Below, piece after piece: positions 364-34,658 of a DNA stretch of 34,792 nt; position 1 is the stretch's first letter, and each line of letters opens with the position of its first letter. Position numbers and translations under genes: made by a program. Under the pieces are notes generated by a model. It was not told where the DNA came from. It ran no database searches and saw nothing but the letters and a program-made list of their open reading frames with translations. This stretch comes from Reclinomonas americana ATCC 50394 (taxonomy: Eukaryota). The DNA lies in assembly GCA_048213135.1 (NCBI GenBank), contig PS015102.1:133869-168660 (forward strand). Reading direction: 5' to 3'.

Positions 364-734
364 TCTCCTCTTTCTCCTCTTTCTCCTCCTCCTTCTCCTC
401 CTCCTCCTCTTTCTCCTCCTCCTCCTCCTCCTCCTCCTCCTTCCTCCTTCATCTCCCTCGCTGACTCTCTTTGCAGAGCCTGACGGACCCTGGCAAGATC
501 GAGGCCAAGGTGTTTGAGGCGGAGAGTCGACTGGAGCTGGCGTTGCACTATGGAATTCCCTATCCACGATTGTTCCAGTTGAGTCAAGAGGGTGACGACC
601 AGGCGTCCCACTGAATCATTCTCACTTCCCCCTCCACTCACCTCCTCCCTTTCCGCAGCGCCTCCACCGACGCCACCGGCGGCAAAGTCAAAACCGTCAA
701 ATCCGCCTACATGGACAGCTACCAAGACGAATGA
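10..734 (+). CDS. LYRM1: LYR-motif protein 1 (Complex1_LYR family), 3 exons: 10-150, 477-577, 659-734
   Basis: Spliced product MSTPLPRSRVLSLYRSILRAGRQW...YIEQEARTLFHRNK|SLTDPGKIEAKVFEAESRLELALHYGIPYPRLFH|ASTDATGGKVKTVKSAYMDSYQDE*. It has the LYR motif, EARTLF..NK and the LHY.IPYPR signature of LYRM1. GT-AG introns with consistent phases (0, 2). Confidence 0.92.
253..445. repeat. (CCT/TCT)n microsatellite in LYRM1 intron 1
   Basis: Long run of cct/tct triplets; explains the poly-S/P/R/E ORFs in all frames. Confidence 0.95.
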
Positions 735-1015
735 GTGAGCTCTCTCTCTCGAAAGAAGGAAAAGTGTATATAATACTTATGTGTTGATATATTGTTGGTG
801 TGCCAAGGTCATTGTCGGCAAGGGATTTGTGGGCGTTTATCGCATTATTGGAATGTGGTGCACGTGATGTTGGTGTTTATGATTTGGATATGGTTGGAGT
901 TGGTCATCAAGACAGTTGTTGCTTGTTTGTTGGCGAATGAATTGTGCATTAAGTGTGTTGCATTATTTATACATGATTTCTCCTCCTTTTTTCCCTATCC
1001 TCCCTTCCCGATCTT

Positions 1016-1483
1016 TCACACTGGTCTCCTGTTGGCGAGATCGAGGAGGACGGCGTCGGAGCCCTTGGAGGCCGAGAAGAGATACAGACCGCCGCTGCGC
1101 ACCGCCAGTGCCACGGCCTCGGCCCTTGCCTTCGCGTCGGTCTGTTTGGCGGCATCGGCAGCCTGCGCCGCCTGCAGCTGCTTCTCTTCGCGGCCGTGCG
1201 TCTCGATAAAGACGCGCAGAACGGGGTTGGCGAGGATCAGGCTGCGCAGCGTGTGGTTCGCCAGCACCTTTTTGTTCTGCNNNNNNNNNNNNNNNNNNNN
1301 NNNNNNNNNNNNNNNNNNNNNNNNNNNNNNNNNNNNNNNNNNNNNNNNNNNNNNNNNNNNNNNNNNNNNNNNNNNNNNNNNNNNNNNNNNNNNNNNNNNN
1401 NNNNNNNAGCGGCTCACCCGTCATCGGCGACGTTTGCCGTGAGAGCAGCCACTCTTCCACCACGCGGCGCTCGTATGTATGAC
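1016..1483 (-). CDS. U-box domain (C-terminal half) plus helical tail; terminal exon of a gene whose upstream exons are not visible
   Basis: After acceptor TTCGCAG (1490-1484): (G)HTYERRVVEEWLLSRQTSPMTGEP-L-QNKKVLANHTLRSLI, the U-box GxTYER..I..W...TSPMT..L.....N..LR..I pattern. The frame joins across the 1281-1407 gap as CT+G = Leu. Stop at 1018-1016. Confidence 0.85.
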
Positions 1484-1539
1484 CTGCGAAATGGGGGAAA
1501 GAATCGAGGTCAGTTGAGAAGGGAGAGGGTGAGGAAGAA

Positions 1540-2138
1540 AGGGAAAGGGCAAGCTTGCAGTGCATACACAACAATTCTTCTCTCCCCCTCTCTGTGTAAG
1601 AAAGGAGGGAGAAAGGGAGAAAGAGAAGGGCAAGCTTGTTGCGCATACACAACAATTCTTCTCTCCCCCTCTCTGTGTAAGAAAGGGAGGGAGAAGAAAA
1701 GGGCAGCTTGCAGTGCATACATAACAAGTTCTTCTCTCCCCTCTCTCTGTGTAAGAAGGGGAGAGAGAAAGGGAGAGAGAGAGAGAGCGTGGAAAAGGGC
1801 ATGCTGGCAGTACACAGCAATTCTTCTCTCCCCCTCTCTGTGTTAGAAAGGGAGGAAGAAAGGAGAGAGAAAGGGCAAGGTTTTCAGTGCATACACAACA
1901 ATTCTTCTCCGCCCCCTCTCTGTGTAAGAAGGGGAGGAAGAAAGGGGGGAAGAGAGAAGGGCAAGCTTGCAGTGCATACACAACAAATTCTTCTCTCCCC
2001 CCTCTCTGTCTGAGAAGGGGAGAGAGAAAGGACAGAGAGAGAGAAGGGCAAGCTTGCAGTACACAGCAATTCTTCTCTCCCCCTCTCTGTGTAAGAAAGG
2101 GAGGAAGAAAGGAGAGAGAAAGGGCAAGGTTTTCAGTG
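1540..2138. repeat. Intronic minisatellite, unit about 70-80 bp (GGGCAAGCTTGCAGTGCATACACAACAATTCTTCTCTCCCCCTCTCTGTGTAAGAAAGGGAGG...)
   Basis: About 8 imperfect tandem copies visible, running into the N-gap at 2139. Confidence 0.9.
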
Positions 2139-2470
2139 NNNNNNNNNNNNNNNNNNNNNNNNNNNNNNNNNNNNNNNNNNNNNNNNNNNNNNNNNNNNNN
2201 NNNNNNNNNNNNNNNNNNNNNNNNNNNNNNNNNNNNNNNNNNNNNNNNNNNNNNNNNNNNNNNNNNNNNNNNNNNNNNNNNNNNNNNNTAAAGAGGGAGA
2301 AGGAGGGGAAGGAGAAGGAAAGAGGGGGAAGAGAAAGGGGGAAGGAGAAGGTCCCTTTCACTTCCTTCTCTATCTCTTCGTTCTCTTCCTTTCCCTCTCT
2401 TCCCCTCACTTCCCCTTGTCCTTCCCCTGTCTCCCCTCTTTCCCCCCTCTCCTTCCCGCTTGCCACTCAC

Positions 2471-3887
2471 CGTTCACCGAAACGCAGAGTCGACAGACTC
2501 TCTTGCGCGTTGTACGAGCTCTCCGTAATGTTGATGATGAGTGCGGTCCTCGAGTTGCCACCGAACGCATTCATCAGCAGGTACGTCAGCTTGCTATCGC
2601 GGTACGGAATGTGGCTGCGACCGCGCGGATCATTGAGCGCCGCAATCACATTCTGCAGCGCCAGCAGCGACGTGTTGATCTTCTTGGCCTCCTCCAGGCG
2701 CTAATCAACACAGACAGTGAGCCACAACAGTTGGCTGGGGGAGAGAGAATTGAGTGGCACAAACCTCGCCCTCGGCCAGCGTCTTGCAGACTTTCTCGCT
2801 GCCGGCCAGGTCGACCAGGTACAACTGCGACAGCTTGGACATTTGCATGACGCGGTCGGTCTGGATCAGCGTCAGCAGGAACAGCGTGTGGCTGCGTGAG
2901 CTCTCGCGGTTCATGTCTGGCGCACAGTGATGATGAGCATTCGGACGTGCAGGAAAAAGTAGCGACAGACAACTCCACGCAACTCGTCTCGGCGACCTCA
3001 CGGTTGGCGGTGCCACGGCGCAGCACGTCAAACACCTCGTTGAAGTTGGTGACCTTGACTTGCGTGGCGTCGGGGAGGAACAGACCGCGCTTCGAGTCAC
3101 CGCGAGTCTTCAGCGGCACCTTCACGTTCTTGCTCAGCAAGTCGTACACGCGCTCCTTGTACACCTCCACGTGCGAGGCAAACAGGTCAAAGTCCACCTG
3201 CGGCGACGCCGCTGCAATCCGCGAGAACAGCTCGCGCAACACGCGCGGAGTAATGCCCTGCATGCGCGGATTCTCCATGTCGCCCTCCATTGTAAACGTC
3301 TTGCCCGACGACGTCTGTCCGTACACCAGAATGGCGGCATTGATGCCGGCCAGCACGTCGGCGACCACCGGGAAGGCTACCTCCTCGTACACTTCGGCCT
3401 GAGTGGCTGTCGTATTGAAGACACGTGTGTAGTCGAACTGCACGCGGGCTGTCAGTGACAGGTGTGTGAAAGACAGCGGACAGACAAGACAAGAGACCTT
3501 GTACATCTCTCCCTTCTCGTGCAGTGCCACTCCCGACTGCCCGTTGTGGTAGGTGATAATGTCCTGGCCGCCTTGACTGATCTCCAGCTCGTTTTGTGGT
3601 CGTACCTGTTGTTGTCATGTGAGGAGTGTGAGGAATTCTGCCGCTGCGATGAATTGTATGCGTGTGAGAGAGGGAGAGACGCAACTCGGCAGTACACGCG
3701 CACTGCGTCTGTGCTTTCCGCGCAGCTGCTCGCCGAGGAGAGAGGCCGCGCAGAGGAGCTGTGAGGTGGTCAGTGAGAGAGAGTGATGACATCTGTGTGT
3801 GTGTGTGGGCACTCACCCCTCGCCGCCAAACTCGTCAAAGTCGACCTCCGAGTCGTCCATGTGGTCGGGCGACATGAAGCTGGCCAT
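2471..3887 (-). CDS. Kinesin motor domain, kinesin-1-like; exons 3887-3817, 3758-3686, 3605-3498, 3437-2984, 2916-2765, 2700-2471; 3' part continues past donor at 2470
   Basis: VRVYCR|VRP start, P-loop VYGQTSSGKTFTMEG, EVYKERVYDLL, switch I AETNMNRESSRSH, switch II LVDLAGSEKV, INTSLLAL, HIPYRDSKLT, ESLSTLRFGER. All five internal introns are GT-AG, 58-80 nt, with matching phases. Confidence 0.95.
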
Positions 3888-5006: not shown

Positions 5007-8000
5007 ATGCGACAGTCCACTGTCATTCTCCTGGCGCTCGCGGTCACGCTCTTGCTGTCCGCATCTGTCTCCGCCTCCTCATCAGTGAGCGCCACCACTG
5101 TGGAGAGAGTGCATGCAGGGCCGTACTCGCTGTGTTGCGTCAACACTACACCCGCGTGAATGCACTCAATGCGATGCTTCATGCATGCTTTTACCGGGTG
5201 CTCATGAATCAATACAGCAATCGAGTCCTCGCCCACTGTCACGCTCCTGTTGCCGTTGCGTTGTCCCACGTGTACCACGCTTGTTGGTCGCTCGCGTGTG
5301 CGTGTGTGTGTGTATGTGGCGCGTGATAGTGAGGCGGCGGCGGCTGCGAGAAGTTTTTTTGTTCGCCAGCTGATTTTTCCGCTTCTCAATCAATTTGCCA
5401 ATCTTTTTTGCTTGTGACTGGCAGGCGGCCGACTCCCAACTGCGACATTGGAATTCGTTCCCTGCACAACTGGCGTGTGGTGCGTGCCGACGGGAGCGAG
5501 CTGCCGGTGAAGGTGGTCTCGGCGGCGCTGTCGCTGGAGTTCAATTACTTTGGCTCGACGCTGGAGACGCTGGGCGCGTGGAGCCCGTTGCCGGAGGGAT
5601 TTGCAAGTTGCGTGTATCTCGCTCTCTCGATCTTCCCCGTATACTGGCCGATTAATGACTCGTGATACCAGTCATCTTGCGCGGACATCGTGCCATTCAG
5701 CTGCATCTTGAGCTGGCCGACGCCGACGACAACGGCGGGGCCTTGCAGTTCATCGTCTCGTATGATATCGAGTACTATGGTGAACTGCAGTCGGCGTCGC
5801 TGCGGCCGGTACACGGACTGTCGATGAAAGCAGCCGGCGTCACGGGCGGGCACGGCCACCACGGCCACCACCACGGAGGACAGGGGACGCCGGTTGGCAG
5901 TGTCACGCTGCCACACTTCCCCTTTGACGGCCACGGTGTGTGTCCCTCCTCCTCTTCCTCCTCCTCCTCCCTCTCCCTCCTCCCTCCTCCCTCCTCCTCC
6001 TTGTTCGTGTTATTCTTCTTCTTCTCCTTTTCTTTCTCCTCCTCCTCCTCCTCCTCCTCCTCCTCCTCCTCCTCCTCCTCCCTCTTCCCTCTGACACTCT
6101 GGTGCGCGACCTCTGCAGTGCTCTACGCCGCCACGCCGAGCTGCGCGACTGTGTTGACGGAGGCGAATGCACACGTCACCGCTCGCCAGCTGTTTGCCGA
6201 TTTCCTCGGCACCCAGGCGGACTCGTGCGCTGCCGAGGCTGCGATTCAGTCGACAGCCGAGCGCTGGGTGGTGCTCCTCGTGTCGGATAGTTACGCTGCC
6301 CGTGCAGCCAACTGCTGCATGCCCGCTCTCTCTCAATCATCCATCGCACCTCCACAGGCGAATCGTACGCCCCACAGCAGATATTCACCGCCAACTTTGC
6401 ACCGTTCCACACTGGCGGCGCGGACGTCGAGTCGATCGCTAGCGCCGATGGTGCGTACGTGCACTCAGCCTCTCACGCTTGTCACTGTCTCTCACACGCG
6501 CACATCCGTTGCAGCCGCCACCACCACCAACATCCACACCAGCGGCACCAATAACGACTTGATCGACCTGCCGACGCTGACCAGCTCCAGCACCACGGGT
6601 GTGCTCGATGTGCTGATGGTGGCCGTGCCGGAGACGAACCCAGCGTTTGCCACGTGCAACATGGGGTGCGCACCCGTCACCTGGGTGTATCAGGTGTGTC
6701 CGCGACCGGCCGACCGCAGTGCCACCGCATGCCCGACCGGCACCGCACTGCCGAATGCATACGGCGGAGCGCGTCTGCAGCTCATGCCAGGCGACACGCT
6801 GAAGGTGCGTCTGGTCAACAAGCTGCCGACCACCACCGGCAAGCACCAGTTCGACGGCGACTCGACGGCGTACCTGGGTCAGAATCCGACCAACATTCAC
6901 ACCCACGGTCTTCTGGTCGACCCAGGGAACTTGGTACCGTCGCCGTCCAGCAACGGTCCGTACGGCGACTTTGTGTTTGTCGCGAACTTTAACCTGGCCA
7001 ACGGTGCACCGCTGCCGATCGAGTTCTCCCACGTCACACCGGTCTCCAACTATGTGGACTATGAGATCAAGATTCCCGCCCACCATCCCGCCGGTCTCTT
7101 CTGGTTCCACCCGCACGTGCATGGCGTGGCTCAGAATCAAGTGCACGCCGGTATGGCCGGTGTGATCACCATTGGCAAGTCGGCCGACTATGTGTGCCAG
7201 AACGTGCTGTGCCTGGGCAACTCCGCTGCGGTACCTGTGCGCCACCTGCTCCTGAAGAGGTGAGTGACGGCGCGATAGATAGTTCCTTGGCGCAGCGCTC
7301 ACGTTCGCCGGTGCAGTACGCAAGTGCTGGCCGACGGCACACGCATGGACGACCCGGATCCCGATTTCTGCCCGCAGATTGCCGACATGTCGGAACCACA
7401 GCGCGCCGGCTCGTGCCCGGGCCAGGACAACTCGGCCGACGGAGGCGACGACTTTACGGGCGGCAAGTGGTTCTACCCGGTGAACGGGCAAGTGTATCCC
7501 AACATCCCGGTGGACGTCTCCGTTGGCGAGGTGTGTGCATGATGTCCGCTGTGCGTGCACACCACCCCAACGCTTACAGCACACTCCTCCTCGGCAGATC
7601 TGGCGTATCACCACAGCCATGGCCAGTGTGAACTTGGACCTCACGCTGCAGGTGTCGGCTGGTGGCGTCACCTACAACATGCTCTTCCAGATCCTGTCGG
7701 TGGACGGCATCGCTGTGGCACCCACTGGCACTCCAACGCAATCGAAACTGACCGAGATCTCCGGCAACAAGTTCCGCACTCTCCCGTGTCCGCGTGTGAG
7801 TGCCGGTAGCGCAGGTGCGCCGCGCATCCTCGATCAGGCGCTCGGCACACCCATGTGTGCCGATCGCATGCACCTGCTGCCGAGCTCGCGTGTGGAGGTG
7901 TGGGTGGCGTTCCGAGACCAGCAGGGTCGCCTGGCCAAGCCGCCGGCCGGTGTCAAGGCCGTGTTGGCGAACGGTGGCGTGAGCACTGGACCGGCGGGTG

Positions 8001-8882
8001 ACTCGTGGCCGGCGGTGGATCTGGCCAGCGTCTGCTTCGTCAGCTCACCAAAGGCCACGCTGCCGGCTTACCTGTTGGTGCTGGGTGGCGGTGCCGCCGG
8101 TGCCATTCAGCTGCCGAACGCTCTTGTGGCGCTCGAGCTGAGTGCCGCCAGTCGCGCCCTCAGCAACGATGGTGTGGTGTGCCCGAAGCTGGCGGCCGGG
8201 GTCCGACGCCGCATTTTCTTCGGCCTGCCGAACGGCGACGATGAGGCCTTTGGTCTCGGCTACGACTTTGTCAACTCACAGGGCCAGTCTGTGGACGTCA
8301 ATGGCAAGCCCACCGCGCAGACTCAGACGATCCAGCAGTTTGACGCCGATGCGGCGGCCGTGTGCGTGTTCAAGCCCCGGGCGTTGCCGGTGACCGAGCA
8401 ATGGGTGTTGTACAATGTGGCTGGCGAAGGTGAAAGTTGTTGCAGGAGTGTGTGCATTTTTGTGACCTCGAGTGCTGACACGCTATATCTGTTTGCTGCC
8501 GCACTGCAGATCACAACTTCCACATTCACCAGGTTTGTGTTGTACTCTCGCTTGCCACGTGCACCCCCCTGACCAGTGTGTTCTTTTCCCCTCAATTCTT
8601 GATGGCCTGTAGGTCAAGTTCCGCTTGCTGAGCACTGCAGAGATTGCGGGGACGGCGGCACCGACCGGTGTGCTGATTGACAACACGCCGCTGGCGGCCG
8701 GCTCTGGCGACTGCGACGGCAGCATTGCCAAGTGGCAGTCCGGCGACTGCGTCGCGACTCCGACGACTGTGGCCATCACTTTCGATGTGGCCGGCGATTT
8801 TGTCTTCCACTGCCACATTCTGGAGCATGAAGACGGCGGCATGATGGCGAAGATCAGCGTCCGGGAGCCGTCGGCGACGTAA
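5007..8882 (+). CDS. Secreted multicopper oxidase (3-cupredoxin-domain, bacterial CueO/laccase-like type) with long N-terminal extension; well-supported exons 5425-5606, 5672-5935, 6119-6289, 6358-6450, 6515-7259, 7317-7530, 7598-8429, 8510-8532, 8613-8882; exons 5007-5270 tentative
   Basis: Signal peptide MRQSTVILLALAVTLLLSASVSA. All four Cu motifs are present: TNIHTHG, FWFHPHVHG, DHNFHIHQ, VFHCHILEHEDGGMM (T1 axial Met). Also PGDTLKVRLVN and QILSVDG. Exon phases are consistent from 5425 to the stop. Confidence 0.93.
5944..6082. repeat. (CCT)n microsatellite in oxidase intron 5936-6118
   Basis: cct/tct runs between donor GTGTGT (5936) and acceptor CTGCAG (6118). Confidence 0.9.
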
Positions 8883-10050: not shown

Positions 10051-10175
10051 GTTGCGTGTGTGTGTGCGCGGGGAGAGAGCGACGCACACAATGGAGTCTC
10101 GCAAACTCCGAATGTCGANNNNNNNNNNNNNNNNNNNNACGATAATGGAGTGGGTGGGAAGCAGAAAAAGCTCAC

Positions 10176-12091
10176 CTGCGCCACTCGGCGGCCTCGATCG
10201 TCGAGAATGTCGGCTGCGTTCGCTGGATTGTCGCGCGGTGTCAAGCGATTGAGGTTGTCGGCAATCTTCATCTCCAACTCTGTGTTTTGCCAGATGGCTC
10301 CATCGGTCACCTCCGGCCACGACAGCGTCGGTTCCACAGCGTCACTCGCTGCGTTCGGCACACACAAATGGGGTGAGTAACTATCGTTAAAACTTGTTCT
10401 GTGTCTGTCAGTGGAGGCAGACGAAACCTGGAGCACTCGGTGGTGGCCTCTGTCGCAGTGATGGAGTGCCGACTGACGATCCGCGGCGTGCGCTGAGCAG
10501 ACCCATGCCAGTGTTGGCGACACCGGACTCCCACGACACCTGGCCGGGGATGAGCGGCACCACGTGCATGGTGTTGCTCTTGCGTTTTCTGGCCACCACT
10601 GGCGGCATGACTGGCAGGCGCTTCTTCTTCTTCTTCGGCACCGGTGCGGGCTCTGCGGGTTTCCGGCGCACCTTGGCCACAGTGCGCCTTGTCGGCATGC
10701 TCTTCTCCGCCCTCTCCTCCTCCTCTTGTGCCACCTCGCTTTCGTCATCTTCCTCCTCGTCTTCCTCCTCGGCGTCGTCTTCTTCGTCGTCATCATCGTC
10801 ATCGTCGTCACTGTCGTCCTGTTCGTACGCGGCCAGCAAGTCACGCGTCTTGTCGATCAGCACTCTGCCAAACAGGCCGCGCCACGTCAGGTTGACCACG
10901 TGGCTGGCCGAGTACTTGTTCACAATGTAGCTGTGAGGGGCACGTGGGTGAGGTGAGCAACATCGCAGAAAATGAGATGGGGGTGAAGAGAGCGCAACTC
11001 TCGCAAAAACGTCTCGAGCATCTTGTCGTGCTCCAGACTGCGCAAGAACGCCAGCTGCTCCGGCGTCGGTGCCGTCCTCAACTCGCCATTGCTGGACTGA
11101 CGCGACAATACCTCCAGCGCCGACTGCAACCGCATGGCCTCCTCCGCCGACGCATCACCAATCACCTCCTGAATGCGATTCTCCCAGTATGCGTGGCGGC
11201 CGGGCGTGTGCAACAGCTTATCCCGCCGCATCTCCTGATACACCTCCAGCAGCGCACGAAGGCGCGCAGCATCCTTTTGCCACGCCTCCGCCAATTGTCG
11301 CAGATCCTCGTCCTCCAGCTCCACCACTGCCGACTGAATCGTCTGCAGGCGAGAGAACGACTCAAGCGCACTCTCCAAATACTCGACCGCGGTCGGCAGC
11401 ACCGGAAGCACCGGTTTCGTTTCGCACACACTCTGCACGTCATTGTCGACCGATTCTGCGCGCGCGCGAATGATTGAGAACCGCAGCACACAAACCACCT
11501 TCAGTGCTGTTCGAGAATAACAATACCATCGTGTACTCTCCGGATCCAATCATTCAACGAGGCGACTCCATCATCGCGACACTTGACACGCTCCAACGCG
11601 GCCTTCCTTCTCTCCGTGCGCCACTCCTTGTAGCACTCTTCGCTAAACGTATCCGAATCCAGCGACAAGTTGTCCTCCTCATCGTCCGCGCCTGCTGCTG
11701 CGTCCCGAGGTGCGCTATCCTCCTCCTCCAACAGCAGCAGCACAGAATCATCACTATCCGCAACCGGCGGCACTGTCGGTGTCGTTGATTGGTCCGGCTC
11801 GTCATTGATTGGTGGCGGTAACGGAATTGGCGAGAGGGTGACGACGGGTTGCGGCGACGCGTCGAGCACCACACTCAGATCGATCAACAACGCCGACGAC
11901 GACGATGATGGTGGCGTGCTCGGGAACATCAGCAACAACGTCTCCTTCTTCTGCGCATCCTCGTTGTCTGCGAGGGTGTAGTCGACGACCGCCGCGAGTG
12001 GCTGACACGAATCCTCTTCTTCTTCCTCTTCTTCGTCACTGAGCTGCCACGGTCTCACTTCGCCCACACTCGCATTGACTGCGAGATCCAT
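10176..12091 (-). CDS. Uncharacterised protein (acidic/Pro-rich N-terminus, helical middle, poly-D/E tract, KKKKKR and RKRK putative NLS); exons 12091-11527, 11455-10999, 10930-10428, 10348-10176; 3' end lost in gap
   Basis: Four long open exons joined by 68-79 nt GT-AG introns with matching phases (1, 2, 1); strong donor CAG|GTGAGC at 10175. No family recognised. Confidence 0.7.
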
Positions 12092-12893
12092 GTCTCTCGC
12101 TCGCTCTCTCGCTCGTGGGGGGGACAATTGAACCTCAACGAAAAATTTAACCGAAAACGATAGCTGTAGACGGGTCTACAGTGGGAAGTGCGGGAATTGA
12201 AGGGAAATCAACGGCAAAGTACCTACAACAGCAGCAGCTTAGAGGAGTACAAACAGGAATACAGCGGGACGATGATCATCAACTTGAGAAACTCAGACAT
12301 CACGGAAACAAAATCGAAAAATGTCAATTTCTGGAGCCAAGCAAACAAAGTAAAGCATGTTCCGGATCCGTGGAGCAGGCAAGGCAGTGGAGGCATCGCC
12401 ATCGGTGGTGAGGTTAAACAAATGATAGCCTGTCGTGTTGTGTTGTTGGTGAGAATCATTTCGGTGGTCAGTTGTTATTCTTCCAAATGGAGGCTTCCTT
12501 GTTCGAACCATCGGTTTACGGTAAAGAGTAGTTGGGTTTGTGTGGCACAGGTGTGACCTTCTCTCCGACACACAACAACGAAAAGATAACTCTCACACCG
12601 TAGCCTGATTTACAGAATGCCAAATAGTCACTGTTGCAGCAGCAATAATTCGCGAATTCGAACTGCAAACTGTACAGCAAAGCAGTGAGCTATAATTTTA
12701 TTGCTCGTGCAAAGAGGGACTACTCTGCAGTACTCTGCTGTGGCTTCTTCGTTGCGATCTCCGTTTCGAGTGAGATTTCAGTCTACAGTCGGGTTTACAG
12801 TAAGAAATGTTGAGCGATCGTGCGCGTGGCAATCGCGGTTCGGGTCGCGCCAGTGCGAGTGCGCCGAGTGGGAATGCCAGTGCGGTGCAGCAG

Positions 12894-13097
12894 ATGGCGG
12901 TGGATTTCCAAAGTCGCGTGCGCCTGGGCAAGACGCATTTGAGTAATGTTGCGTGGCGCATGTCACACGCACGCACACACGCGCGAAGAGGGGAAGGGAG
13001 AGAGCGAGGAAGGAGGGTGGGGAAGGAGGAGGAGAGTGTGTGTGTGAGAGAGAGAGGAGGGAAGGGGAGGGTGGAGTGAGGAATATCTGCATGCATT

Positions 13098-13189
<92 letters not shown>

Positions 13190-14788
13190 GAGAGAGAGAG
13201 AGAGAGACGNNNNNNNNNNNNNNNNNNNNNNNNNNNNNNNNNNNNNNNNNNNNNNNNNNNNNNNNNNNNNNNNNNNNNNNNNNNNNNNNNNNNNNNNNNN
13301 NNNNNNNNNNNNNNNNNNNNNNNNNNNNNNNNNNNNNNNNNNNNNNNNNNNNNNNNNNNNNNNNNNNNNNNNNNNNNNNNNNNNNNNNNNNNNNNNNNNN
13401 NNNNNNNNNNNNNNNNNNNNNNNNNNNNNNNNNNNNNNNNNNNNNNNNNNNNNNNNNNNNNNNNNNNNNNNNNNNNNNNNNNNNNNNNNNNNNNNNNNNN
13501 NNNNNNNNNNNNNNNNNNNNNNNNNNNNNNNNNNNNNNNNNNNNNNNNNNNNNNNNNNNNNNNNNNNNNNNNNNNNNNNNNNNNNNNNNNNNNNNNNNNN
13601 NNNNNNNNNNNNNNNNNNNNNNNNNNNNNNNNNNNNNNNNNNNNNNNNNNNNNNNNNNNNNNNNNNNNNNNNNNNNNNNNNNNNNNNNNNNNNCTTCCCA
13701 CTCTCTTTTTCTTCTCTCTCTCTCTCTGTCTGTCTCTGTCTCTCACACACACGAGAGAGAGAGAGATAGCTACGAAGAGGTGATGGGCGCGACCTGCACT
13801 CATAACACATCTTCTCCCGTTCACAATGCACGTGAGTTCATGCATGCAGCCATGCTCTCTTCTCCTACTCTCTGCCCACGTGTCCACGAAGAGAAAGGCG
13901 TGCAAAAGGCATGCAGCAGATTGACAATGCAAGTGTGATTTGCTTGCAGTCAACGTTTCTCTCTTCTCTCCCCCTCCCCCCCTCTCCTCTCCCCCCCTTC
14001 GCTCACCTTTCCCCCTCTCCCTGTCCACACAGACGGAAACCATCTCCGCTGCCGACGCTCTCCGCTCCCACGGCATCGACAACTCGTTCACCATTGAAAA
14101 GTTCGCCGAGAGCTTCCGCATCGAGTTCAACCCGCCGAGTGCCGACGCGGTGGCCTCCAGCGACGATCGCCGCCTCAACCTGGTCTTCGACATGATCAAC
14201 ATTGATGCGCCGCTGGCCAATGCGCTGCGGAGGGTGATGCTGGCGGAGGTGCCGACAATGGCGATTGAGCGAGTGGTGGTCGTTGATAACACGTCGATTG
14301 TCGCCGATGAGGTGCTGGCGCATCGGTTGGGTCTAGTGCCGCTGTTGGTGGATCCCCGGCAGTTTCAGTTCCCGAGGGAGGGGGCGTTGACGAGTTGCGG
14401 ATGGGGAAGGGAGGGGGAAAAGGGAGAGGGAGGAGGAGGAGGAGAGAGAGAGTGTGTGTGTGTGTGTGTGTGTGCGTGTTTCTTGTATTCTTCCATCACA
14501 TTCTCTGCCCGGTGTCTCCTATGCTCGGCGCATCACATGGCATCTCGTTTGCACTGCTGCAATTGCGGGCATTGCGAATCGCCATCTCACTGACACAAAG
14601 CTGGCGGATCCTCCCGTGAGCAAGAGAGAAGAGAATGACAGACTGAGAAAAGCAGAGAGAGACTGAGTGAAAGACGCGCGCGGAGTCAGAGAGAGAGAGA
14701 AAGGAAGAGGGAGATTCAAAATCTGAGAGAAAGACGCGCGCGGAGTCAGAGTGAGCGAGAGAGAAAGGTAGAATGGGAGTGAGGAAGG

Positions 14789-14826
<38 letters not shown>

Positions 14827-17045
14827 AAGTAGAGAGAGAATGAGAGAGAATGAGAAAGATAGAGAGCGGGAGAGAAGAAAGAGAGGTGTTCTATCAACAA
14901 GAGACCGTTTCCTCTCACTCTTCTTCCTCTTCTCTGCCGACTCACCTCCCTGCCCTCCCATCACGCACAGTGGACGTCGAGGAGCTTGGGTGGACCGAGG
15001 CCATCAAATTCCGTTTGGAGGTCGCCTGCACGGCGANNNNNNNNNNNNNNNNNNNNTTCCCGGCGCCCCCGATGATGCACCAGAGAGCAGGAAGTACCTG
15101 AATCACACGGTGTATTCTGGCGACTTGAAGTGGGTACCAATAGGCATGCAGGTGCGCGCGCTCGTGGAAAACGAAGGGAACATGAGGTGTTGGATGTTGA
15201 CATCGTGTGTGCCCGTGCAGGAATCCACGTTTGAGGAGATTAGACCTGTGTATGACGACATTATTCTGGCCAAGTTGAGACCAGGCCAGCGCATTGAGTT
15301 GGAGATGTGGGCCTTCAAGGGCGTTGGCAAGGATCATGCCAAGGTGGGTGTGAGGAGAAAGGAAAGAAAAGTAACTGCTTGGATGTACTCTCTTCCGAGT
15401 GAGCACGATTGTTCGATTTGTGTACTGCGTGCGAGTGTGTTACCTTCATCGCCGTAGCTGTATCTGTGTGATGTGAGTGAGAGAATTTGGTTTGAGCGAG
15501 CTGTCTTCTGCACATGCGAATGCGTGCATGCCACAGAGAGAGAGAGGGGGGGAGGGAGAGGGATACGCTTGTGGTAACCGTCGAGTGTACGCCAGAGAGT
15601 AAGAGGCTGCGTGTGCATGTTTGTGTGGCTCTGTGTGTGGGTGATTGTGCTGCTCTTGCACCGATGTGTCTGTGCGCTCACCGGAGAACAGAGGTGAAGT
15701 GTGCATGTTTGTGTTCCTGTGCTTGTCATGCTGTATTCTGTGGTCGCCGTAAAGAGAGATAGACGCTGTGTGTTTGTGTCAGTCGTGTCTGTGTTCTCGA
15801 GAGATTCTGCCCTTGCATGCGGTGCTGTGGTTCACCCTGCCCCTCTCCCCGCAGTTTTCGCCAGTGGCCACCGTGAGCTATCGAATGCACCCCGAGATTC
15901 ATGTGGCTCCCGATCTGGGACCAGCGTTGGCGGACCAGCTGGTGAAGATGTGCCCGACTGGCGTGTTCGAGATTGATGATTCAGGAGGTGCGTGATGTGA
16001 ATGAGAGAGAGAGAGAGAGAGAGCGAGGACGAGGAAAGTGCGAGTGAGTGAGTGAGTGGGTGAGAGTGTGTGGTGTGGCCCTGGGATATCGTCTTCGTAA
16101 GAGCATACTCGCGACCGTCTTCACCCTCCACAGCGAAGGCAAATCCATCTGAGAGAGAGAGAGAGGAGAGTGAGCGAGAGAGTGAAGAGAGTGAGGCGAT
16201 GAACAACGTTCAGTGTCTCTTCCCTCCGCAGTCTCCCTTTCCCTCTCTACCGTCTCCCATTCCTTCTCTACAGCCTCCCTTCCTTTTCCACTGTCTCCCT
16301 TTCCTCTCCACTGTCTCCGTTCCTTCTCTACAGTCTCCCTTCCCTCTCCTCTGTCTCCCTTTCCTCTTCTCTGTCTCCCTTCCCTCTACAGTCTCCCCTT
16401 CCCTCTCCACTGTCTCCTTTCCTTCTCCACCACCGTCTCCCTTCCCTCTCCTCTCTCCCTTCCTCTCCGCAGTCACCCTTCCCTCTCCGCAGTCTCCCTT
16501 CCTTCTCCACTGTCTCCCTTTCCTCTCCACTTTCTCCGTTTCCTCTCCACCACCCTCTCCACCACCGTCTCCCTTCCCTTTCCACAGTCTCCCTTCCTTC
16601 TCCACCACCGCCTCCCTTCCCTCTCCTCTCTCCCTTACCTCCCTTCCCCCTTTAGACACGGTGACAGCGGTCGCTGCATACCCCCGCAACTGCACCTCGT
16701 GCCGCGAGTGCATTCGACACGACGGGTGGACGTCGCGCGTGCAACTCAACAAAATCAAGACGCACTTCATTTGTTTCGTCCGCCCGTGCCATCTCATGTC
16801 TCCCTTGCCCCTGCACTCACATTGTCGTCGCAGTCTCTGTAGAAAGCACGGGCATGTTTACGGCGGCCGATGTGGTGTTGGAGGCCGTCAAGGTGCTGCG
16901 TCAAAAGTGTGTGACGGTGCTGGAGGCGCTCGACAAGTTTGTCGACGACCAAGAGCAGCGGGATGCGGTGGCGATGGATGCCGACGAGGCGGGTGATGAC
17001 GATGACGACGATGACGATGATGATGAGGACGAGGACGACGAATAG
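12894..17045 (+). CDS. POLR1C: DNA-directed RNA polymerase I/III subunit AC40 (RPC40); exons 12894-12947, 14033-14393, 14971-15151, 15221-15343, 15855-15987, 16656-16772, 16834-17045
   Basis: SRVRLG N-terminus, FDMINIDAPLANALRRVMLAEVPTMAIE, NTSIVADEVLAHRLGLVPL, IRPVYDDIILAKLRPGQ, KGVGKDHAK|FSPVATVSYR, HFI|FSVESTG. The PV..DI..AKLRPGQ and DHAKFSPVAT motifs indicate AC40 rather than Rpb3. Confidence 0.96.
13105..13207. repeat. (GA)n microsatellite in POLR1C intron 1
   Basis: About 100 nt of near-perfect GA repeats ending at an N-gap. Confidence 0.95.
16210..16650. repeat. Pyrimidine-rich minisatellite (unit about 20-22 bp, C[A/T]GTCTCCCTT[T/C]CCT..CTCCA) in POLR1C intron 5
   Basis: GTCTCCCTT core recurs about every 20 nt for over 400 bp up to acceptor TTTAG at 16655. 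Confidence 0.85.
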
Positions 17046-17177: not shown

Positions 17178-20100
17178 TCACGTCGGTACCGCGGTGGGCG
17201 TCGGCGGCGCCGTCGTGGCCTGCGACGATAATGAGGCCACGGAGGCTTTCCGACTGCCAATGCCGCGCAACGCAATAATGTCCTCGTACACGCGCAGCGC
17301 GCGCTTCCCGTGCAGCTCCTTTTGTCGCTGCAGGTGATGGCAGAAGACCGACAGGACCGGCAGCGCCAGCTGTCGCAACTCTTCATGCTGCGACCGCACT
17401 CGCTCCGAGTCCATTTGTGTCGACGATAATGACGAGGACGAGGAGGGCGAGTCGGAGCACACGGACGATACGGTTGAGGAGGGAGTGGACGACGGCTGCT
17501 GCTGTTGTTGTTGGGATGATGGTGGTGGTGATTGTGACGGTGGTTGGGGTCGCTGGCCGATGCGCGACTGCGCCACAGGCGGCGTGCCTGCGCCGCGCCG
17601 AACCGGCATCTTGGAGGTTGCCAGGTGCGTCAACGCAATGCGCAGCACAATGCGTTCGCCATTGAGACGCAGGAGTGGTCGCAACATGCGCACACACGGT
17701 GAATCAAAGTCGAGCTCAGGGCCGGCCAGGGAGACCACCTGCAGGCCGGCGTGTTCCACCAGCGCCTCCACGGCGAGTGGGATGAGATCCATCAACATGT
17801 CGTTGCCTGAGGGAGGGGAAGGTGAGGATGAGGAACGAGAGAGGAAAGGGAAATGGCAGGCAGGGTGGCTGGCATGCCTTGAATGTGAAACTCGACGAGA
17901 CCAGTGTTGCGCTCCACGGCACGCCACAGTTGCGAGCAACCCACAGCACCGATTCCAGCATCTAGTGCGTGGAGGTGAGGAGGAGACATGGAGAGAGAGT
18001 GGGAGAAGGGGAGACGTGAACGCAACGACAGAGGTCTACTCTTCTCAAGTTGGTGGACTGTGCAATCATTCCGGCCAGTGCCATTGCGCCGTCGTCGCCA
18101 ATGCCAGTGTCTGTGGAGGTAGTTGAGGGAGGAGAATAGAGAGAGAGAGAGACAAGGAGCTGAGCACGAGGCCTCCTNNNNNNNNNNNNNNNNNNNNCAC
18201 TCTCCTTTCTATTTATAAGGCAATTGCGGTGACAGAGGAGGTCTCTCAAGAACACCAGTGCATGGAAGTAGAGCGAGTCATTCACACGCGCGAGCGAGAA
18301 AGGGAGGGAGACATACAAGCAAGAGGGGTGAAACATGCACCAAGCGGAGGTGAGATACACAAGGACACGGGTAAGAGAAACACAAACGGGAGCATGACAT
18401 GCAAGGTGCAAACAGGAGCGCAACACGCAAGGGTGCAACTAGGAGCATGATATGCAAGAGTGCAACCAGGAGCGCGACATGCCAGCGTTCACCAGGAGCA
18501 TGACATGCAAGAGTGCAACCAGGAGCGCGACATGCCAGAGTGCAACCAGGAGCATGACATACAAGAATGCAACCAGGAGCATGACATGCCAGCGTTCAAC
18601 CAGGAGCGCGACACGCCAGCGTTCAACCAGGAGCGCGACACGCCAGAGTGCAACCAGGAGCGTGTCATGCAAGAGTGCAACCAAGAGCGCGACATGCCAG
18701 CGTTCAACCAGGAGCGTGTCATGCAAGAGTGCAACCAGGAGCGCGACACGCAAGAGTGCAGCCAGGAGCGCGACATACAAGGTTGCAACCTGGAGCGTGA
18801 CACGCAAGAGTGCAACCAGGAGCGTGACAGATAACCAAACGAAGGAGAAAACACATCTTGTGGCAGTCATTCGTCACCAATGATCACTCACTTTGCATGA
18901 AGAGCGTCCTCAGACTCGAATGCCGCAAGAGACCGTATGCAAGGTTGCCGGCTCCCACCGACGTGACCGTCGTGGCTGCAACCACACACACACCAATAAA
19001 CTCAGACGCAATCAATACCGACTCACGGTGAAGACAGACGCAACCCCCGAGCGTGAGGTCCTTGAGCGTGCTGGGAGACATGGCCAGGAACTCGGCCAGA
19101 GCCGACACACCAACATCGCCAAACGGATTCACCTCTGCCCTCCACAACACCGTCAGCTGCCGCACAATGTCAACAGGCTACCCACGCTCGCACAAAACCG
19201 CACCGAGATACAACTCCTCCAGCACGTGGTTTGTCGCCAGGCCCTCCGCGAGGATGCACAGGTGATCGTCGGTCAAATTACAGGCTGCGCAAAGCGTGTG
19301 AAGGTGAGCGAGCGGAATAACTTTGTCAGAAAAGAGAGGCACTCACATCCCAAGCCGAGAACCTGAGCGGGAAGACATGGTGAGCAGATGTGAGATGCAG
19401 AGAAAACGGTAAAACACAATTACACACCCTCAGCGTTCGATTTCTTGACAGCGCGAGGCTCAACAGTCGCGCACTGTGCTCGTCCAGGTGATCTGCAACG
19501 AGAAATGTGAGACAACGACAAGGGAAGCATAGACGGAGTGGCGGTCAGCGAACCGGAGATGAACAGCTTCTGGATAGGGCACTGATCCACCACCAGCACC
19601 TGGCAAATGGCCGTCATCGGTGCGAACGAGGACTTGGTGACTGTGGACCTGATAAGTGAGGCAACAATAAGCGGCTGCACACGCGGGTGGGCACGCAACA
19701 GGTGACAGTGATTGTCTTTAGACGTGGCTGCGTCAGCAGTGCAGTCTGCAGCGCACGGAAGCACAGCATCTCCTCCAAGGATGAGCCGCATTCCACTGCC
19801 ACAGAAAAGGAAAAATTATCGACGGTCAGACGAGCGGCGCGCGGGGGTGAGGAGACGAGGAGTCGTGCACGACGCACCCATAAAGTACAAATCGACAATG
19901 ATGCCCCGCATGAGCACGTGCTTGGCAAACGCCTCCACTTGCTTGGCCGACAAGCTCTCCGCTGCGATGCAACAAATGAGCCACAAGACAGCAAAACCGC
20001 TTCAGCGCTCGAATATCCCCCTTCGGGAAAAGAAAGCGAGCACACAACAGGCACAAGTGACTTCTGGCTCCGTTCTCTCCGATCAAACTATCGCACAAGA

Positions 20101-31700: not shown

Positions 31701-34619
31701 AAAGGGGTTGTGCCTTGTTTTGATCGTTCGAATGTGCTCATTGTCCCTCGCGCGCGCGCAGATGGCAAGGTCACGTGCGTCGCATGGAGGTGTGGGTGGA
31801 GCGCGTCAAGGCCGCCGTGCAGGCCGAGTCCGAGCAACGAGTGCGCCTCCTCACCGAGACGATCGACCGACGCACGCGTGACACGGCAGAGATGAGCGCC
31901 CGCGTGGCTGTGTTGTCGCGTGAGTTGCCCGAGTTGGAGCGGCAGGTGGAGCGCTTGCGCAGTCAGCGCAAGAAGAAGCTGCCGGTTGGCATTGAGTTGG
32001 CACTGGTGGATCGACTGGCCGCCAAGGATCAGGAGATTGCCGTGGCCACACTCGATCTGACATCGGCACGAGAGGAGCGTGAGTTGCGCTTGGCCACCGT
32101 TCGTTCGGAGGCCGAGTCGGGCGGCAAGAGTTGCGCGTCGAAGAGGGGAGGAGAGGAAGGGAGAAGAGTGTGTTGTGATGTTTACTTGCGGCGGTCGCAG
32201 CGTTGACGACACTAAATGACGTGCTGTCCGAGTTCAAGGCCTTTAATCCGCGCGACGGAGCGCACAAGGTTGGTGGCGTTCGTGATTGTCGCCATATGGC
32301 GTGTGGTTATTTCAACGGCTTTGTTCCGCGCAGGCGCACGATTCGGCGCAGCTGTTTGTGCACCGCAGCGAGGCTGCGTCGATGTCGATGAAGGCGGTGG
32401 CGCAGGAGAGTGCGTTCCGTGATCAGCGTATTCCGCCGTCCTTGAAGGTGAGAAAGGGGAAGGGGGCGAAAGGGGGAAAGGGAGGGGAAGAGGGAAAGGG
32501 AGAGTGAGGGAACGAGAATAGTCAGCACCTTTGTTGTTGTCAGTGCATGTGTGTGCAAAGAACGTCCCTTGTGTTGGTGCTGTTTGTTGTGATTTGGATG
32601 AGCGACAGCAGTTGCATTGACTGCTGATTATTGATTATGCTGAGCGGTATTGACATCTGCAGAGAATCATGTGTGTGCAGTAGCTGAGATGTAGAACAGT
32701 CTTATCTTGGTGCTGTTGTTGTGATGCTGGAAGAACCATGTGTGGCAGCTTGTTAGTTGCATGCAGCGGTTGGTGAGAAGTAGAACAGGGTGCACTTGGT
32801 GCTGTTTGTTGTGATTCTGATGAGCAGTGTTTAGCACACTCAGAGAATCATGTGTGGCAGCTTGTTAGTTGCATGCAGCGGTTGGTGAGAAGTGGAGCAG
32901 GCTCCGCTTGGTGCTGTTTGTTGTGATTATGATGGGCAGTAATAAGCGCATGCAGAGTCATGTGTATGAAGACGCCGTGGGCAGCAGAACAGGAGAAAGA
33001 AGTAGAAAAGGCTGCGCTGGGTCAGTTGTTGTGATGCACGATAAGCTGTAGTAATAAGTGCACGTAGAGTTGACAATTAGATGCAGAAACAGTGGGGAGA
33101 AGTAGAACAATCTGAACAGGGTGTCACTTTTTGTGCGCGACATGTCGTTGAGGAGATTGACACTATCAGCGAGTCGTAGCATGCGGAGAGAGGGAAGACA
33201 ATGAAGAGCATTGAAGTACTTGTGCAAACGAAGGAGAGTTGGTAGGATAACGCAAGTCGCTTATTCCTTGTCTCATCATGATGATGTGTAGAAAACACCT
33301 TCATTTTGGTCTCTTCTCCTTTCTCCAATGTTACTCATCCTTTCCCCTCCTTTGCAGGGCTCCTTCATCGAATCCGGCGAAGAGGAAGTCTTCCAGACCG
33401 AAATGATTGAGATGTTCTTCGAGCCGGTCACTCCGGCGCTGACTGTCGGCATTTGGACCTTCAACGACGTGAACGAGGTGGTCGATTCGCTGTCACTCGG
33501 CGCGCAACCACAGAACACCAACGGCAGCATCAAGCTGTCGATGGACTCCGAAGTGTGAGTTCTTGATGGGATATCACAAGCTGCCCGTTAGTTTGTTTGT
33601 TTTAACCTTGCTGCTTCGCAGTGGTTTCCGCGCGGAAATCGACTTTTCGCAGCTGGAATCGTCGCTGTGCACGATTGCGCTGGTGGTGCTCGATCGCGAT
33701 TCACGACCAATCGCTTCGTCCAACACAATCGGACGCGTGCTCACCGTGCGCAACATGATTACGCAAGGTACGAGAGGGTCGTGACGATTGCGCGAGGGTG
33801 CAGTGCTGAAGTCTTATGTATTTTTCGCGACATCAGTGAGCACCAAGATGCATGTGCTGGCCGAGGGCGTGCCCGGCCTGCTCATTGGTGTGCTGTCGAT
33901 GCTCAACTCGAACCCGTGTTGGGCGCTGCGATGCCTGCAAAAGAGCACAAAGCGGACTCTGCGCGAGTCGGCTGCTCTGGCGCAGGAGCTCACGGCGGCG
34001 GTGATCAACTTGCCGCCCCCACAAGGTGGGTGATTTCACAGAAATGAGGATTGCGACATGTGCTGACCCCCCACCGCCACAGCCGCCATCTCCAAGGTCA
34101 TTCGGTATGTCGACGAGCCTGAAGTTGATACCGCCGAGGAGCAACGCAAGAAGATTGCGTCGCTGATCAAATTGGAGACCGAGCGGCTGCTCATCAACGC
34201 CACTGTCATGTATCCGTCGGATCTCGTCAACCCACAAGGTGAGTGTGTTATTTCGCAAGCCGTGGTGGTTTGTTGACTGTGCGTGCTCACTTTGTTGCTC
34301 AGGTGTGCGTGTGGCCAGTGCTGCGCTGTTGCGAGCGTTGCTGCACTGGCGCGCGTTTGATCATGCCAAGTCGACGTTGTTGGAGCGAGTCGCGGACGCG
34401 CTGGCCTATGTGCTGGGAGTGCGTATTGTGATTGCACTCCGCTGGTCTCTTCCAGAATCTGACTTGTGTGTATATTTGGCAGGGCAAGCATCTGTCGGGC
34501 ATCACCTCGGTGGTGCAGAGTGCACAGGTGACGGTCGATTTGATTCGTCTCCTCGACGGCACATTCATGCACTTGGTGAACCGGCCAGCGGAGCCGCTGA
34601 ATGTGAAGACGGACCGCAC
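23076..34619 (+). CDS. Large multi-exon protein: NT-type C2 domain, low-complexity linker, coiled coil, TerD-like domain, myosin V/XI globular-tail (Dilute-associated)-like region; runs off the window
   Basis: Exons 23614-23749 and 24194-24388: VEYTFNVTVHTL..VWVSYDRGG...ETKPLDILI..GGFTIDLAHYA (NT-C2 pattern). Heptad-rich exons at 30785-32129. Exons 33358-33960 resemble TerD; exons 34083-34419 (LLINA..VASAALLRALLHWRAFD..STLLERV) resemble the myosin XI tail. About 22 GT-AG introns with compatible phases; continuity across gaps in 26694-28581 is inferred. Confidence 0.72.
23845..24120. repeat. 16-bp tandem repeat (AGCG[T/A]GAGCGACACAG), about 17 copies, intronic
   Basis: Directly visible tandem array between donor 23750 and acceptor 24193. 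Confidence 0.95.
27058..27860. repeat. GA-rich microsatellite/degenerate repeat block within large intron
   Basis: (GA)n runs plus a duplicated GAGAAAGAGAC[C/T]GGCAG[G/A]TCAACATCGAGA unit at about 27230 and 27580. Confidence 0.85.
32560..33120. repeat. Degenerate tandem repeat (about 90-140 bp; TTGGTGCTGTTTGTTGTGAT...CATGTGTGGCAGCTTGTTAGTTGCATGCAGCGGTTGGTGAGAAGT) in intron 32448-33357
   Basis: GGTGCTG(T)TTGTTGTGAT recurs at about 32575, 32708, 32798 and 32910; a block of about 45 nt is duplicated at 32738 and 32849. Confidence 0.8.
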
Positions 34620-34658
34620 GTTGCGTGCCGACGGAAAAGGGGGTAGAGGGGAAGGGAG

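Follow-up and report, generated by a model that had tools for sequence, protein, structure and literature searches.

GTTGCGT donors in a 35-kb locus of Reclinomonas americana suggest a second GT-AG donor class read in a displaced U1 register

Recognition of the 5' splice site, or donor, by the U1 small nuclear RNA (snRNA) is treated as pairing in a single register that has few exceptions, and one position-weight model serves both splice-site predictors and gene finders. In Tan et al. 2016 (PMC4856993), shifted and bulged U1 registers are presented as experimentally established for human sites, and the validated noncanonical registers together are estimated to make up 1.5% of 201,541 human sites. 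Our analysis concerns a 34,792-base stretch of Reclinomonas americana ATCC 50394 (contig PS015102.1, positions 133,869 to 168,660; "the window" hereafter means this whole stretch), in which the heptamer GTTGCGT and its minor forms, termed S donors, begin about 40% of the introns (24 of 60 donors) beside the normal (N) donors. The human shifted-register sites (Roca and Krainer 2009, as described in PMC4856993) resemble S donors in starting with GU, in carrying the consensus-like G and U one base deeper in the intron, in having every U1 pair displaced by one position with G+1 opposite C9 of U1, as we propose below for S donors, and in being cut at the GU. Those sites are rare, falling within the 1.5%, whereas the S donors, known from sequence alone, are present in every modelled gene; and in the account given there the human shifted sites are A-rich, whereas the sequence here is GUUGCGU, with an almost invariant C at +5 for which standard U1 does not account.

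None of the titles and abstracts listed in the literature searches presents GTTGCGT donors, or displaced pairing of any kind, as one of the main donor types of an organism; a genome paper on this organism, if there is one, may display the mixed logo and pass over it. The U12-type minor introns, with the donor RTATCCTT and the branch site TCCTTAAC, likewise set a second, sharply defined donor motif beside the major one. However, the S class is far too common for that type, the S and normal 3' halves are indistinguishable here, and neither the S donor profile nor the 3' ends, which are like those of normal introns, place the S introns among the U12-type. Bulged registers, as reportedly described by Roca and co-workers in 2012, allow donors with an extra U after the GU, e.g. 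GUU-AAGU, to be read with one U bulged; such a register predicts the usual G at -1, whereas the S donors are depleted in G at this position (2 of 24). At the STAT3 tandem donor, according to PMC11162779, a shifted U6 register is supported by suppressor U6 RNAs. The likeness is that U6, too, can pair one base displaced, and S donors would need such a shift, or a bulge, at the replacement of U1 by U6; the difference is that this source deals with a single human tandem donor and artificial U6 RNAs, not with a genome-wide class. Diplonemid splice sites, as described in PMC12621601, are (G)/GTATG or belong to non-GT-AG introns and are not GTTGCGT.

Both strands of the window together hold 18 copies of GTTGCGT against 4.26 expected (standard deviation 1.98), a count reached by none of 100 dinucleotide-preserving shuffles. 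Sixteen of these copies open introns of our gene models and lie on the coding strand, while GTTGCG followed by A, C or G serves as a donor in just 3 of 26 copies. Donors were sorted by sequence alone: N donors have G at +5, and S donors have T at +3, no G at +5, and G at +6. The 60 curated donors comprise 31 N (GTGAGT, GTGCGT, GTTTGT and similar forms), 24 S, four other GT donors with no G at +5 or +6 (GTCTCT, GTGAAA, GTTATT and GTAAAT) and one GC-AG donor; the S class consists of 16 GTTGCGT, three GTTGCGC/G, one GTTGAGT, one GTTACGC and three GTTTCGT. All 24 S donors start with GT, and their further intron-side bases are G at +4 (20/24), C at +5 (23/24), G at +6 (24/24) and T at +7 (20/24). 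At the N position that matches S +5, namely +4, the 31 N donors have A 11, C 10, T 7 and G 3 times, and the difference in C content (23/24 versus 10/31) has a p value of 1e-6. A is found at +3 in only one of the 31 N donors, although the introns are 20% A, and GTAAGT, the textbook donor, has a single copy on both strands of the window, which is not a donor. It is somewhat probable, at roughly 60% in our estimate, that GTTGCGT and its minor forms GTTGCGC/G, GTTGAGT, GTTACG and GTTTCGT constitute a genuine second GT-AG donor class, read in a displaced U1 register.

A preliminary description of this DNA had listed 17 GTTG(C/A)G sites as abundant donors of a second class with G at +6 and T at +7. 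The observation is confirmed: all 17 exist at the positions and on the strands it gave, only 19044(-) following a G; 15 are donors of frame-preserving GT-AG introns, and 10051 and 34620 end good exons. The abundance turned out larger than claimed, with 20 of the 60 donors of the GTTG(C/A)G form (5134, 5255 and 30398 being added) and 24 when GTTACG and GTTTCGT are included; the related sites that it named are likewise present (GTTACG at 6290(+); GTTTCGT at 16773(+), 10427(-) and 23078(+)), and the proposed G at +6 and T at +7 agree with the counts given above. The S donors are the following (lower case, last exon bases; slash, exon-intron boundary; intron lengths in nucleotides, nt):

578..584, + strand: cca/GTTGAGT, LYR-family gene, phase 2, 81-nt intron
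2977..2983, - strand: cga/GTTGCGT, kinesin, phase 1, 67-nt intron
3679..3685, - strand: cga/GTTGCGT, kinesin, phase 0, 80-nt intron
5134..5140, + strand: tgt/GTTGCGT, oxidase, phase 1, 84-nt intron (new)
5255..5261, + strand: gcc/GTTGCGT, oxidase, phase 2, 170-nt intron (new)
5607..5613, + strand: caa/GTTGCGT, oxidase, phase 1, 65-nt intron
6290..6296, + strand: ata/GTTACGC, oxidase, phase 1, 68-nt intron
10051..10057, + strand: caa/GTTGCGT, closes the 28-nt exon 2 of a small cysteine-rich gene; provisional
10421..10427, - strand: cag/GTTTCGT, acidic protein gene, phase 1, 79-nt intron; provisional
10992..10998, - strand: aga/GTTGCGC, acidic protein gene, phase 2, 68-nt intron; chosen by the symmetric-score parse
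12948..12954, + strand: aat/GTTGCGT, RPAC1 exon 1, phase 0, intron of about 1085 nt including an N run
14394..14400, + strand: cga/GTTGCGG, RPAC1, phase 1, 577-nt intron; provisional
16773..16779, + strand: ttt/GTTTCGT, RPAC1, phase 1, 61-nt intron
18020..18026, - strand: gtc/GTTGCGT, leucine-rich-repeat gene, phase 1, 65-nt intron
19038..19044, - strand: ggg/GTTGCGT, leucine-rich-repeat gene, phase 1, 69-nt intron; the sole GTTGCGT donor after G
19693..19699, - strand: cct/GTTGCGT, leucine-rich-repeat gene, phase 1, 59-nt intron; frame kept
23078..23084, + strand: aat/GTTTCGT, NT-C2 gene, splits the start codon (AT/G), 536-nt intron; provisional
25432..25438, + strand: gaa/GTTGCGT, NT-C2 gene, phase 0, 72-nt intron
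29986..29992, + strand: cac/GTTGCGT, orphan gene, phase 0, 77-nt intron
30398..30404, + strand: gtc/GTTGCGT, orphan gene, phase 1, 66-nt intron (new)
31021..31027, + strand: gca/GTTGCGT, orphan gene, phase 2, 62-nt intron
31674..31680, + strand: cga/GTTGCGT, orphan gene, phase 2, 88-nt intron
32130..32136, + strand: aga/GTTGCGC, orphan gene, phase 1, 71-nt intron
34620..34626, + strand: cac/GTTGCGT, closes the last visible exon, open in frame, acceptor past the window end; provisional

A shifted and a bulged register are distinguishable by a simple sequence test, namely whether the exon-side profile moves with the register. G stands at -1 in 27 of the 31 N donors, in line with the earlier remark that ordinary donors mostly follow an exonic G, and in 2 of the 24 S donors (Fisher p 2.5e-9). 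This contrast survives restriction to better-supported subsets: it is 17/20 versus 1/13 among the 36 donors fixed by homology or repeat spacing or chosen by the donor-agnostic parse described below (p 1.4e-5), and 11/12 versus 0/8 among the 20 donors that this parse matched, in which all eight S donors follow A (p 7e-5). The -1 base played no role in selecting donors. Counts of the -1 base before all GTGAGT/GTGCGT copies are uninformative, because most of these copies lie within GT-rich repeats. The base at -1 of the S donors is A in 12 cases, C in 5, T in 5 and G in 2; relative to exon composition, A is enriched (12/24 versus 20%, p 0.001) and G is depleted (2/24 versus 32%, p 0.006). Comparison of the two exon sides one base apart gives C in 11/24 at S -3 and 15/31 at N -4, A or G in 16/24 at S -2 and 25/31 at N -3, and A in 12/24 at S -1 and 16/31 at N -2. 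The log-likelihood of the S exon bases is -94.2 under the shifted N profile, -135.5 under the same profile in the same register and -101.5 under the exon background (30 N and 24 S donors). The normal C(-4)R(-3)A(-2)G(-1)/GUGMGU and the S form C(-3)R(-2)A(-1)/GUUGCGU are the same 11-mer except for one base. A G precedes all six donors that combine T at +3 with G at +5 (three GTTTGT and one each of GTTAGT, GTTGGT and GTTCGC); therefore it is the register, not the T, that tracks the -1 base.

These results bear differently on what the preliminary description had proposed about the register. It had allowed for a shifted or a bulged one, and the exon profile moved by one base speaks for the shift while the scarcity of G at -1 (2/24) speaks against the bulge. 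Its idea that S donors compensate for a missing -1 G holds as far as the strong dependence on -1 is concerned, but it is rather the intron G+1 that would replace the -1 G opposite C9. T at +3, the position by which it had suggested splitting the donor logos, is by itself no mark of the class, as the six T+3/G+5 donors after G attest. It had also named a variant U1 or U6, and the near-invariant C at +5 (23/24), which shifted pairing to a standard U1 does not predict, hints at an altered or second U1. As a finding that would speak against the class it had named a genome-wide logo with GTTGCG in no excess and independent of the -1 base; in the window the count is 18 versus 4.26 and the dependence has a p value of 2.5e-9.

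It is proposed that the S signal is an ordinary C-R-A-G/GTGCGT in which the intron G+1 has become T and the cut lies one base upstream, giving C-R-A/GTTGCGT. The U1 snRNA, or whatever first reads the donor, would pair one base out of register: the intron G+1 would face U1 C9, the usual place of the exonic -1 G, the A at -1 would face U10 in place of the A at -2, and G+6/U+7 would stand in for G+5/U+6. U6, U5 and Prp8 would then cleave at the GU, and with the cut before the first G the S intron would still begin with GT. U1 pairing is most likely the cause of the S pattern, and since A is enriched and G depleted at S -1, a shifted U1 register fits where a bulged U does not; the shift is the best-supported mechanism, to which we give the same odds of about three in five. 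The S class should clearly interest those who study splicing or annotate genes in this lineage. If about 40% of the organism's introns indeed use a displaced register, single-matrix gene finders would misplace many junctions in the lineage; the organism would also represent a natural system for studying how U6, U5 and Prp8 set the cut independently of U1, and would yield a testable prediction about the U1 5' end co-evolving with the donor code.

Several S junctions can be placed by protein homology. In the kinesin gene, VRVYCR/VRPQNE at 3685(-) and VAET-N-MNRESSRSH at 2983(-) align gap-free with 10/10 homologues, so the kinesin motifs VYCR/VRP and AET-N-MN, to which the preliminary description had pointed, do fix their junctions. 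In RPAC1, THFIF/SVESTG at 16773(+) aligns gap-free with 11/11 homologues, and the junction codon is TTC, encoding an F common to all 11, whereas moving the cut by one base downstream at both ends would turn it into C; the invariant F is obtained only with a cut before GTT, and therefore the intron begins with GT. The junction of RPAC1 exons 1 and 2 at 12948(+) is also gap-free in 11/11 homologues, with weak similarity of exon 1 (best E value 0.016, 120 proteins). Besides these four homology-fixed S junctions, two more are placed by the spacing of the leucine-rich repeats, for which we assume the rule LxxLxLxxNxIGDxG: the joined sequences LRRVDLCHAGIGAVG at 18026(-) and LKDLTLGATTVTSVGAGNL at 19044(-) preserve the repeat spacing.

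Gene models were obtained by a parser that chains exons. It judges coding potential by a periodic Markov model, for which exons without stops served as training set, requires GT and AG, and scores the acceptor and branch site; its output was then curated by reading. Eight of the nine multi-exon models were free of internal stops at once, and the ninth after a one-base move of an acceptor. A donor-agnostic parse, relying on coding potential and acceptor signals and demanding only GT at the donor, predicted 35 introns, of which 20 coincide with curated donors. GTTGCG begins 7 of these 35 introns versus 44 of the 3893 GT sites in the window (p 1.2e-7), and the S pattern begins 8 of 35 versus 148 of 3893 (p 4e-5). 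The S donors chosen by this parse include 2983(-), 3685(-), 5607, 25432, 31021, 31674 and 32130. The introns of the window are dense and short (median about 70 nt); their acceptors are CAG and their branch motifs resemble CTCAC or CTGAC. No difference separates S from normal introns in median length (71.5 versus 67.5 nt), CAG acceptors (20/22 versus 26/30), pyrimidine content, branch-like motif and G+C. An all-against-all comparison of 57 introns gave 10 non-self hits of 14 to 55 bases in low-complexity sequence, two of which (one pair) join S introns. S and N introns are thus similar and share no sequence beyond the heptamer, and therefore the class is not an intron family by descent and has no special 3' end. 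CTCAC occurs in 95 + 85 copies versus 21 + 25 of CTGAC on the two strands, an excess that comes partly from CT-/CA-rich repeats and partly from its role as the likely branch motif.

The bulged reading would keep U1 in its normal register at G+1/U+2, with one U of +2/+3 bulging and pairing resuming at GCGU. It gives slightly more pairs with the standard U1 5' end, which was taken from PMC4856993 and not from this organism: the S donors average 6.79 pairs when bulged, 6.42 when shifted and 4.5 in the canonical register (N donors, 7.87 canonical pairs). Among the noncanonical modes in humans, bulged registers are also the commoner. However, a bulge keeps -1 facing C9, so that G is expected there, against 2/24 in S and 27/31 in normal donors (p 2.5e-9), and the exon profile fits far better moved by one base (-94.2 versus -135.5); this reading appears quite unlikely to us. 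Alternatively, the snRNA may be dedicated or altered: either U1 has a non-standard 5' end (e.g. with G and C as its bases 5 and 6), or another U1, complementary to GUUGCGU, reads this class, and the donors would then form two matched codes instead of being read by one RNA in two registers. This would suit the S donors, whose sequence is stricter than that of the normal donors (C 23/24 at +5, G 24/24 at +6), and the normal donors, in which A at +3 is nearly absent (1/31, with one GTAAGT in the window). Yet a second U1 alone leaves the one-base exon shift unexplained unless C9 also faces G+1. The U1 5' end, AUACUUACCUG in its standard form, is among the most conserved RNA sequences, and GC-rich organisms exist with GTGCGT donors and a standard U1; we hold such an snRNA, as the explanation in its own right, to be unlikely. 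As an extension of the shifted register, the C at +5 and the A-poor +3 would both be expected of a U1 with G and C at its fifth and sixth positions, or of an additional U1 that matches GUUGCGU. Such a two-code donor system, with a changed U1 5' end (5'-AUACGCACCUG-like, with G and C for two pseudouridines) or a second U1 matching GUUGCGU, is put forward as a tentative possibility; if true, it would be the first natural case of shifted pairing as a principal, precisely specified mode and not an exception. A search of the whole window against Rfam gave no match at gathering thresholds; relaxing the E value to 1 brought 42 sub-threshold matches, every one of them to a microRNA, small nucleolar RNA or untranslated-region model on GA/CT-rich stretches and none to U1, U2, U4, U5 or U6.

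The heptamer might also be an exonic or intronic element near donors, with the true cut at another GT such as its positions 6-7, which a cruder first donor-agnostic parse indeed took at 5612 and 31679. Such a modelling artefact is very unlikely: four S junctions are fixed by homology, one of them by an invariant junction residue, the bases after the heptamer have no donor-like consensus, and the improved donor-agnostic parse took the first G of the heptamer at seven GTTGCG sites and at the GTTACG site. In addition, 7 of the 24 S donors lack any further GT in phase over a distance of 45 nt, and 14 lack one there that has G at +5 or shows the S pattern. Still less probable, and indeed scarcely credible, is an origin of the S introns as introners, transposon-derived introns sharing their 5' end by descent; the sharply conserved 7-base start speaks for it, but similarity along the introns was not found (10 short hits among 57, one S-S pair), and S introns occupy unrelated positions and occur in each of the three phases.

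Some points weigh against the shifted register itself. Counts of U1 pairs do not separate a shift from a bulge, and at +5, where 23 of 24 S donors have C, standard U1 would favour A. For the remaining 10 of the 24 S donors, a GT of the N (G at +5) or S kind does lie in phase no more than 45 nt away, a fact that also favours the artefact. Five S donors are provisional: the acceptors of 10051 and 34620 are not visible, other solutions exist for 10427 and 23078, and the junction of 14394 is in a variable protein loop. The sample is a single 35-kb locus with 10 genes and 60 curated donors; the junctions are predictions from homologous proteins, the spacing of repeats, the reading frame and coding potential, and the full set of donors was chosen with a score rewarding both classes symmetrically, in models made in the analysis itself.

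Individual S donors differ in how closely they are placed. The model containing 578 runs to its stop codon with no internal stop, and no N- or S-type alternative lies in phase within 45 nt; an in-phase alternative GT is absent over the same distance at 5134, 5607 and 25432, and at 5255, 10998(-) and 19699(-) the in-phase alternatives are weak only. The donor at 6290 was picked by the donor-agnostic parse, but with another acceptor, and has one weak in-phase alternative, GTGCAGC, 12 nt downstream. An in-phase GTGAGT 18 nt downstream of 19044(-) would insert six residues, two in-phase GTTTG-type alternatives follow 29986, and at 30398 the donor-agnostic parse preferred another GT, which lies 3 nt upstream and preserves the phase. 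Among the provisional donors, the acceptor of 10051 is masked by the N run 10119-10138; 10427(-), which follows G, belongs to a frame-preserving model, but the parser's own solution differs; and the phase of 14394 suits the next conserved exon, its junction falling in the variable loop and not being fixed by homology. At 23078, AT (23076-23077) joined to the G at 23614 gives MGCCSRRVEYTF. The NT-C2 profile aligns with the exon from 23614 over its positions 3-36 (E value 0.17) and with the next exon over its positions 50-108 (E value 0.0012). The protein of this split-start model begins with MGCC, directly followed by the NT-C2 domain; we take the MGCC start to be a lipid-anchor-like N-terminus. 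Two GTTGCGT copies are not at modelled intron starts, and the strand of orphan exon 1 is uncertain, both strands being open at 29436-29442:

22290..22296, + strand: GTTGCGT outside any gene model, followed by an N run
29436..29442, - strand: GTTGCGT antisense to exon 1 of the orphan gene, both strands open

The window has about 56% G+C outside 11 N runs, and its genes are as follows:

10-734, + strand: LYR-family protein, Complex1_LYR in exon 1 (E value 2.5e-11)
3887 down to at least 2471, - strand: kinesin, Kinesin motor (E value 1e-44)
5007-8882, + strand: secreted multicopper oxidase, from a domain match and copper-site motifs in the translated model
from 9825, + strand: small cysteine-rich gene, read from the sequence
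12091-10140, - strand: acidic protein, gene model
12807-17045, + strand: RPAC1, the subunit common to RNA polymerases I and III, from domain matches and homologues
19961-17178, - strand: leucine-rich-repeat protein, gene model
23076-26691, + strand: NT-C2 protein, from profile matches
29154-34619, + strand: orphan gene, at least 1153 codons in 17 exons, gene model

The Complex1_LYR match bears out the LYR identity proposed earlier for the first gene; YPRLF-H is presumably LYRM1-like. Among 70 kinesin hits drawn from 1153 candidates, the best relative has 45% identity, and the closest full-coverage RPAC1 relative is 56% identical among the matches listed (best 120 of 733); the source lineage is therefore poorly sampled. 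The oxidase model has 986 amino acids without an internal stop. Its part at 5007-6450 (+) encodes a signal peptide and then about 330 residues ahead of the first copper-oxidase domain, a region with no family match that holds a histidine- and glycine-rich stretch, and four of its first five introns are of the S type. Pfam gave nothing above its cut-offs for the exons of the orphan gene, the acidic protein and the N-terminal part of the oxidase, and no match for exon 1 of the small gene from 9825, whose cysteine spacing, as we take it, resembles a Zn2Cys6 cluster. The orphan model has 1153 amino acids, again without an internal stop. Among 1.84 billion representative proteins it has no usable homologue for checking its six S junctions, and its 196-residue exon has a single match there, a 7162-residue repetitive protein. 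A weak ATG17-like match of the orphan gene (E value 0.0057) is below the cut-off and absent when the exon is searched alone.

Tandem repeats at 18389-18829, 23845-24111, 16224-16626 and 1539-2128, with units of 27, 16, 20/60 and 81 bases, sit inside long leucine-rich-repeat, NT-C2 and RPAC1 introns and downstream of the visible kinesin exons. The long introns 151-476 and 14394-14970 (+) and that from 2470 downwards (-) have a purine-rich (GA/GGA) 5' arm and a pyrimidine-rich (CT/CCT) 3' arm, and these arms attract sub-threshold microRNA-model matches. A hairpin was considered for the intron 151-476 and rejected: the arms pair in the predicted fold, with a stability no greater than that of shuffles (z -0.87).

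The N-class donors, and the donors of either the N register or neither class whose junctions were placed by homology, motif or repeat spacing, are listed below. A donor at 13832, c/GTGAGTT, was dropped, as homology puts the RPAC1 start at 12807.

151, 5936, 6451, 7260, 7531, 8533, 9955, 15152, 15344, 15988, 23750, 29703, 30227, 30529, 30723, 32269, 32448, 33555, 33768, 34026, 34239 and 34419, + strand: N-class donors
2470, 2764, 3816, 18891, 19203, 19346, 19427, 19553 and 19877, - strand: N-class donors
2758..2764, - strand: gag/GTTTGTG, N register with T at +3, kinesin; AEGE/RLEEAKKIN gap-free in 10/10 homologues
3497, - strand: aag/GTCTCTT, weak donor, kinesin; gap-free in 10/10 homologues
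8533..8539, + strand: cag/GTTTGTG, N register with T at +3, oxidase; HNFHIHQ/VKF copper-site motif continuous
15344..15350, + strand: aag/GTGGGTG, normal donor, RPAC1, 511-nt intron; GKDHAK/FSPVATVSYR gap-free in 11/11 homologues
17871..17877 (intron 17807-17877), - strand: aag/GCATGCC, GC-AG donor with acceptor end CCCTCAG, leucine-rich-repeat gene

The GC-AG intron is the sole frame-preserving solution found by reading and keeps the repeat spacing. In the same gene, a 16-base micro-exon (VLGLG) at 19347-19362 (-), lying between two ordinary introns, is required to complete one 28-residue repeat. The well-placed donors outside the N and S classes, at 3497(-), 8430(+), 24389(+) and 17877(-) (GTCTCT, GTGAAA, GTAAAT and GCATGC, respectively), all follow AAG, as if the exon side made up for weakness on the intron side.

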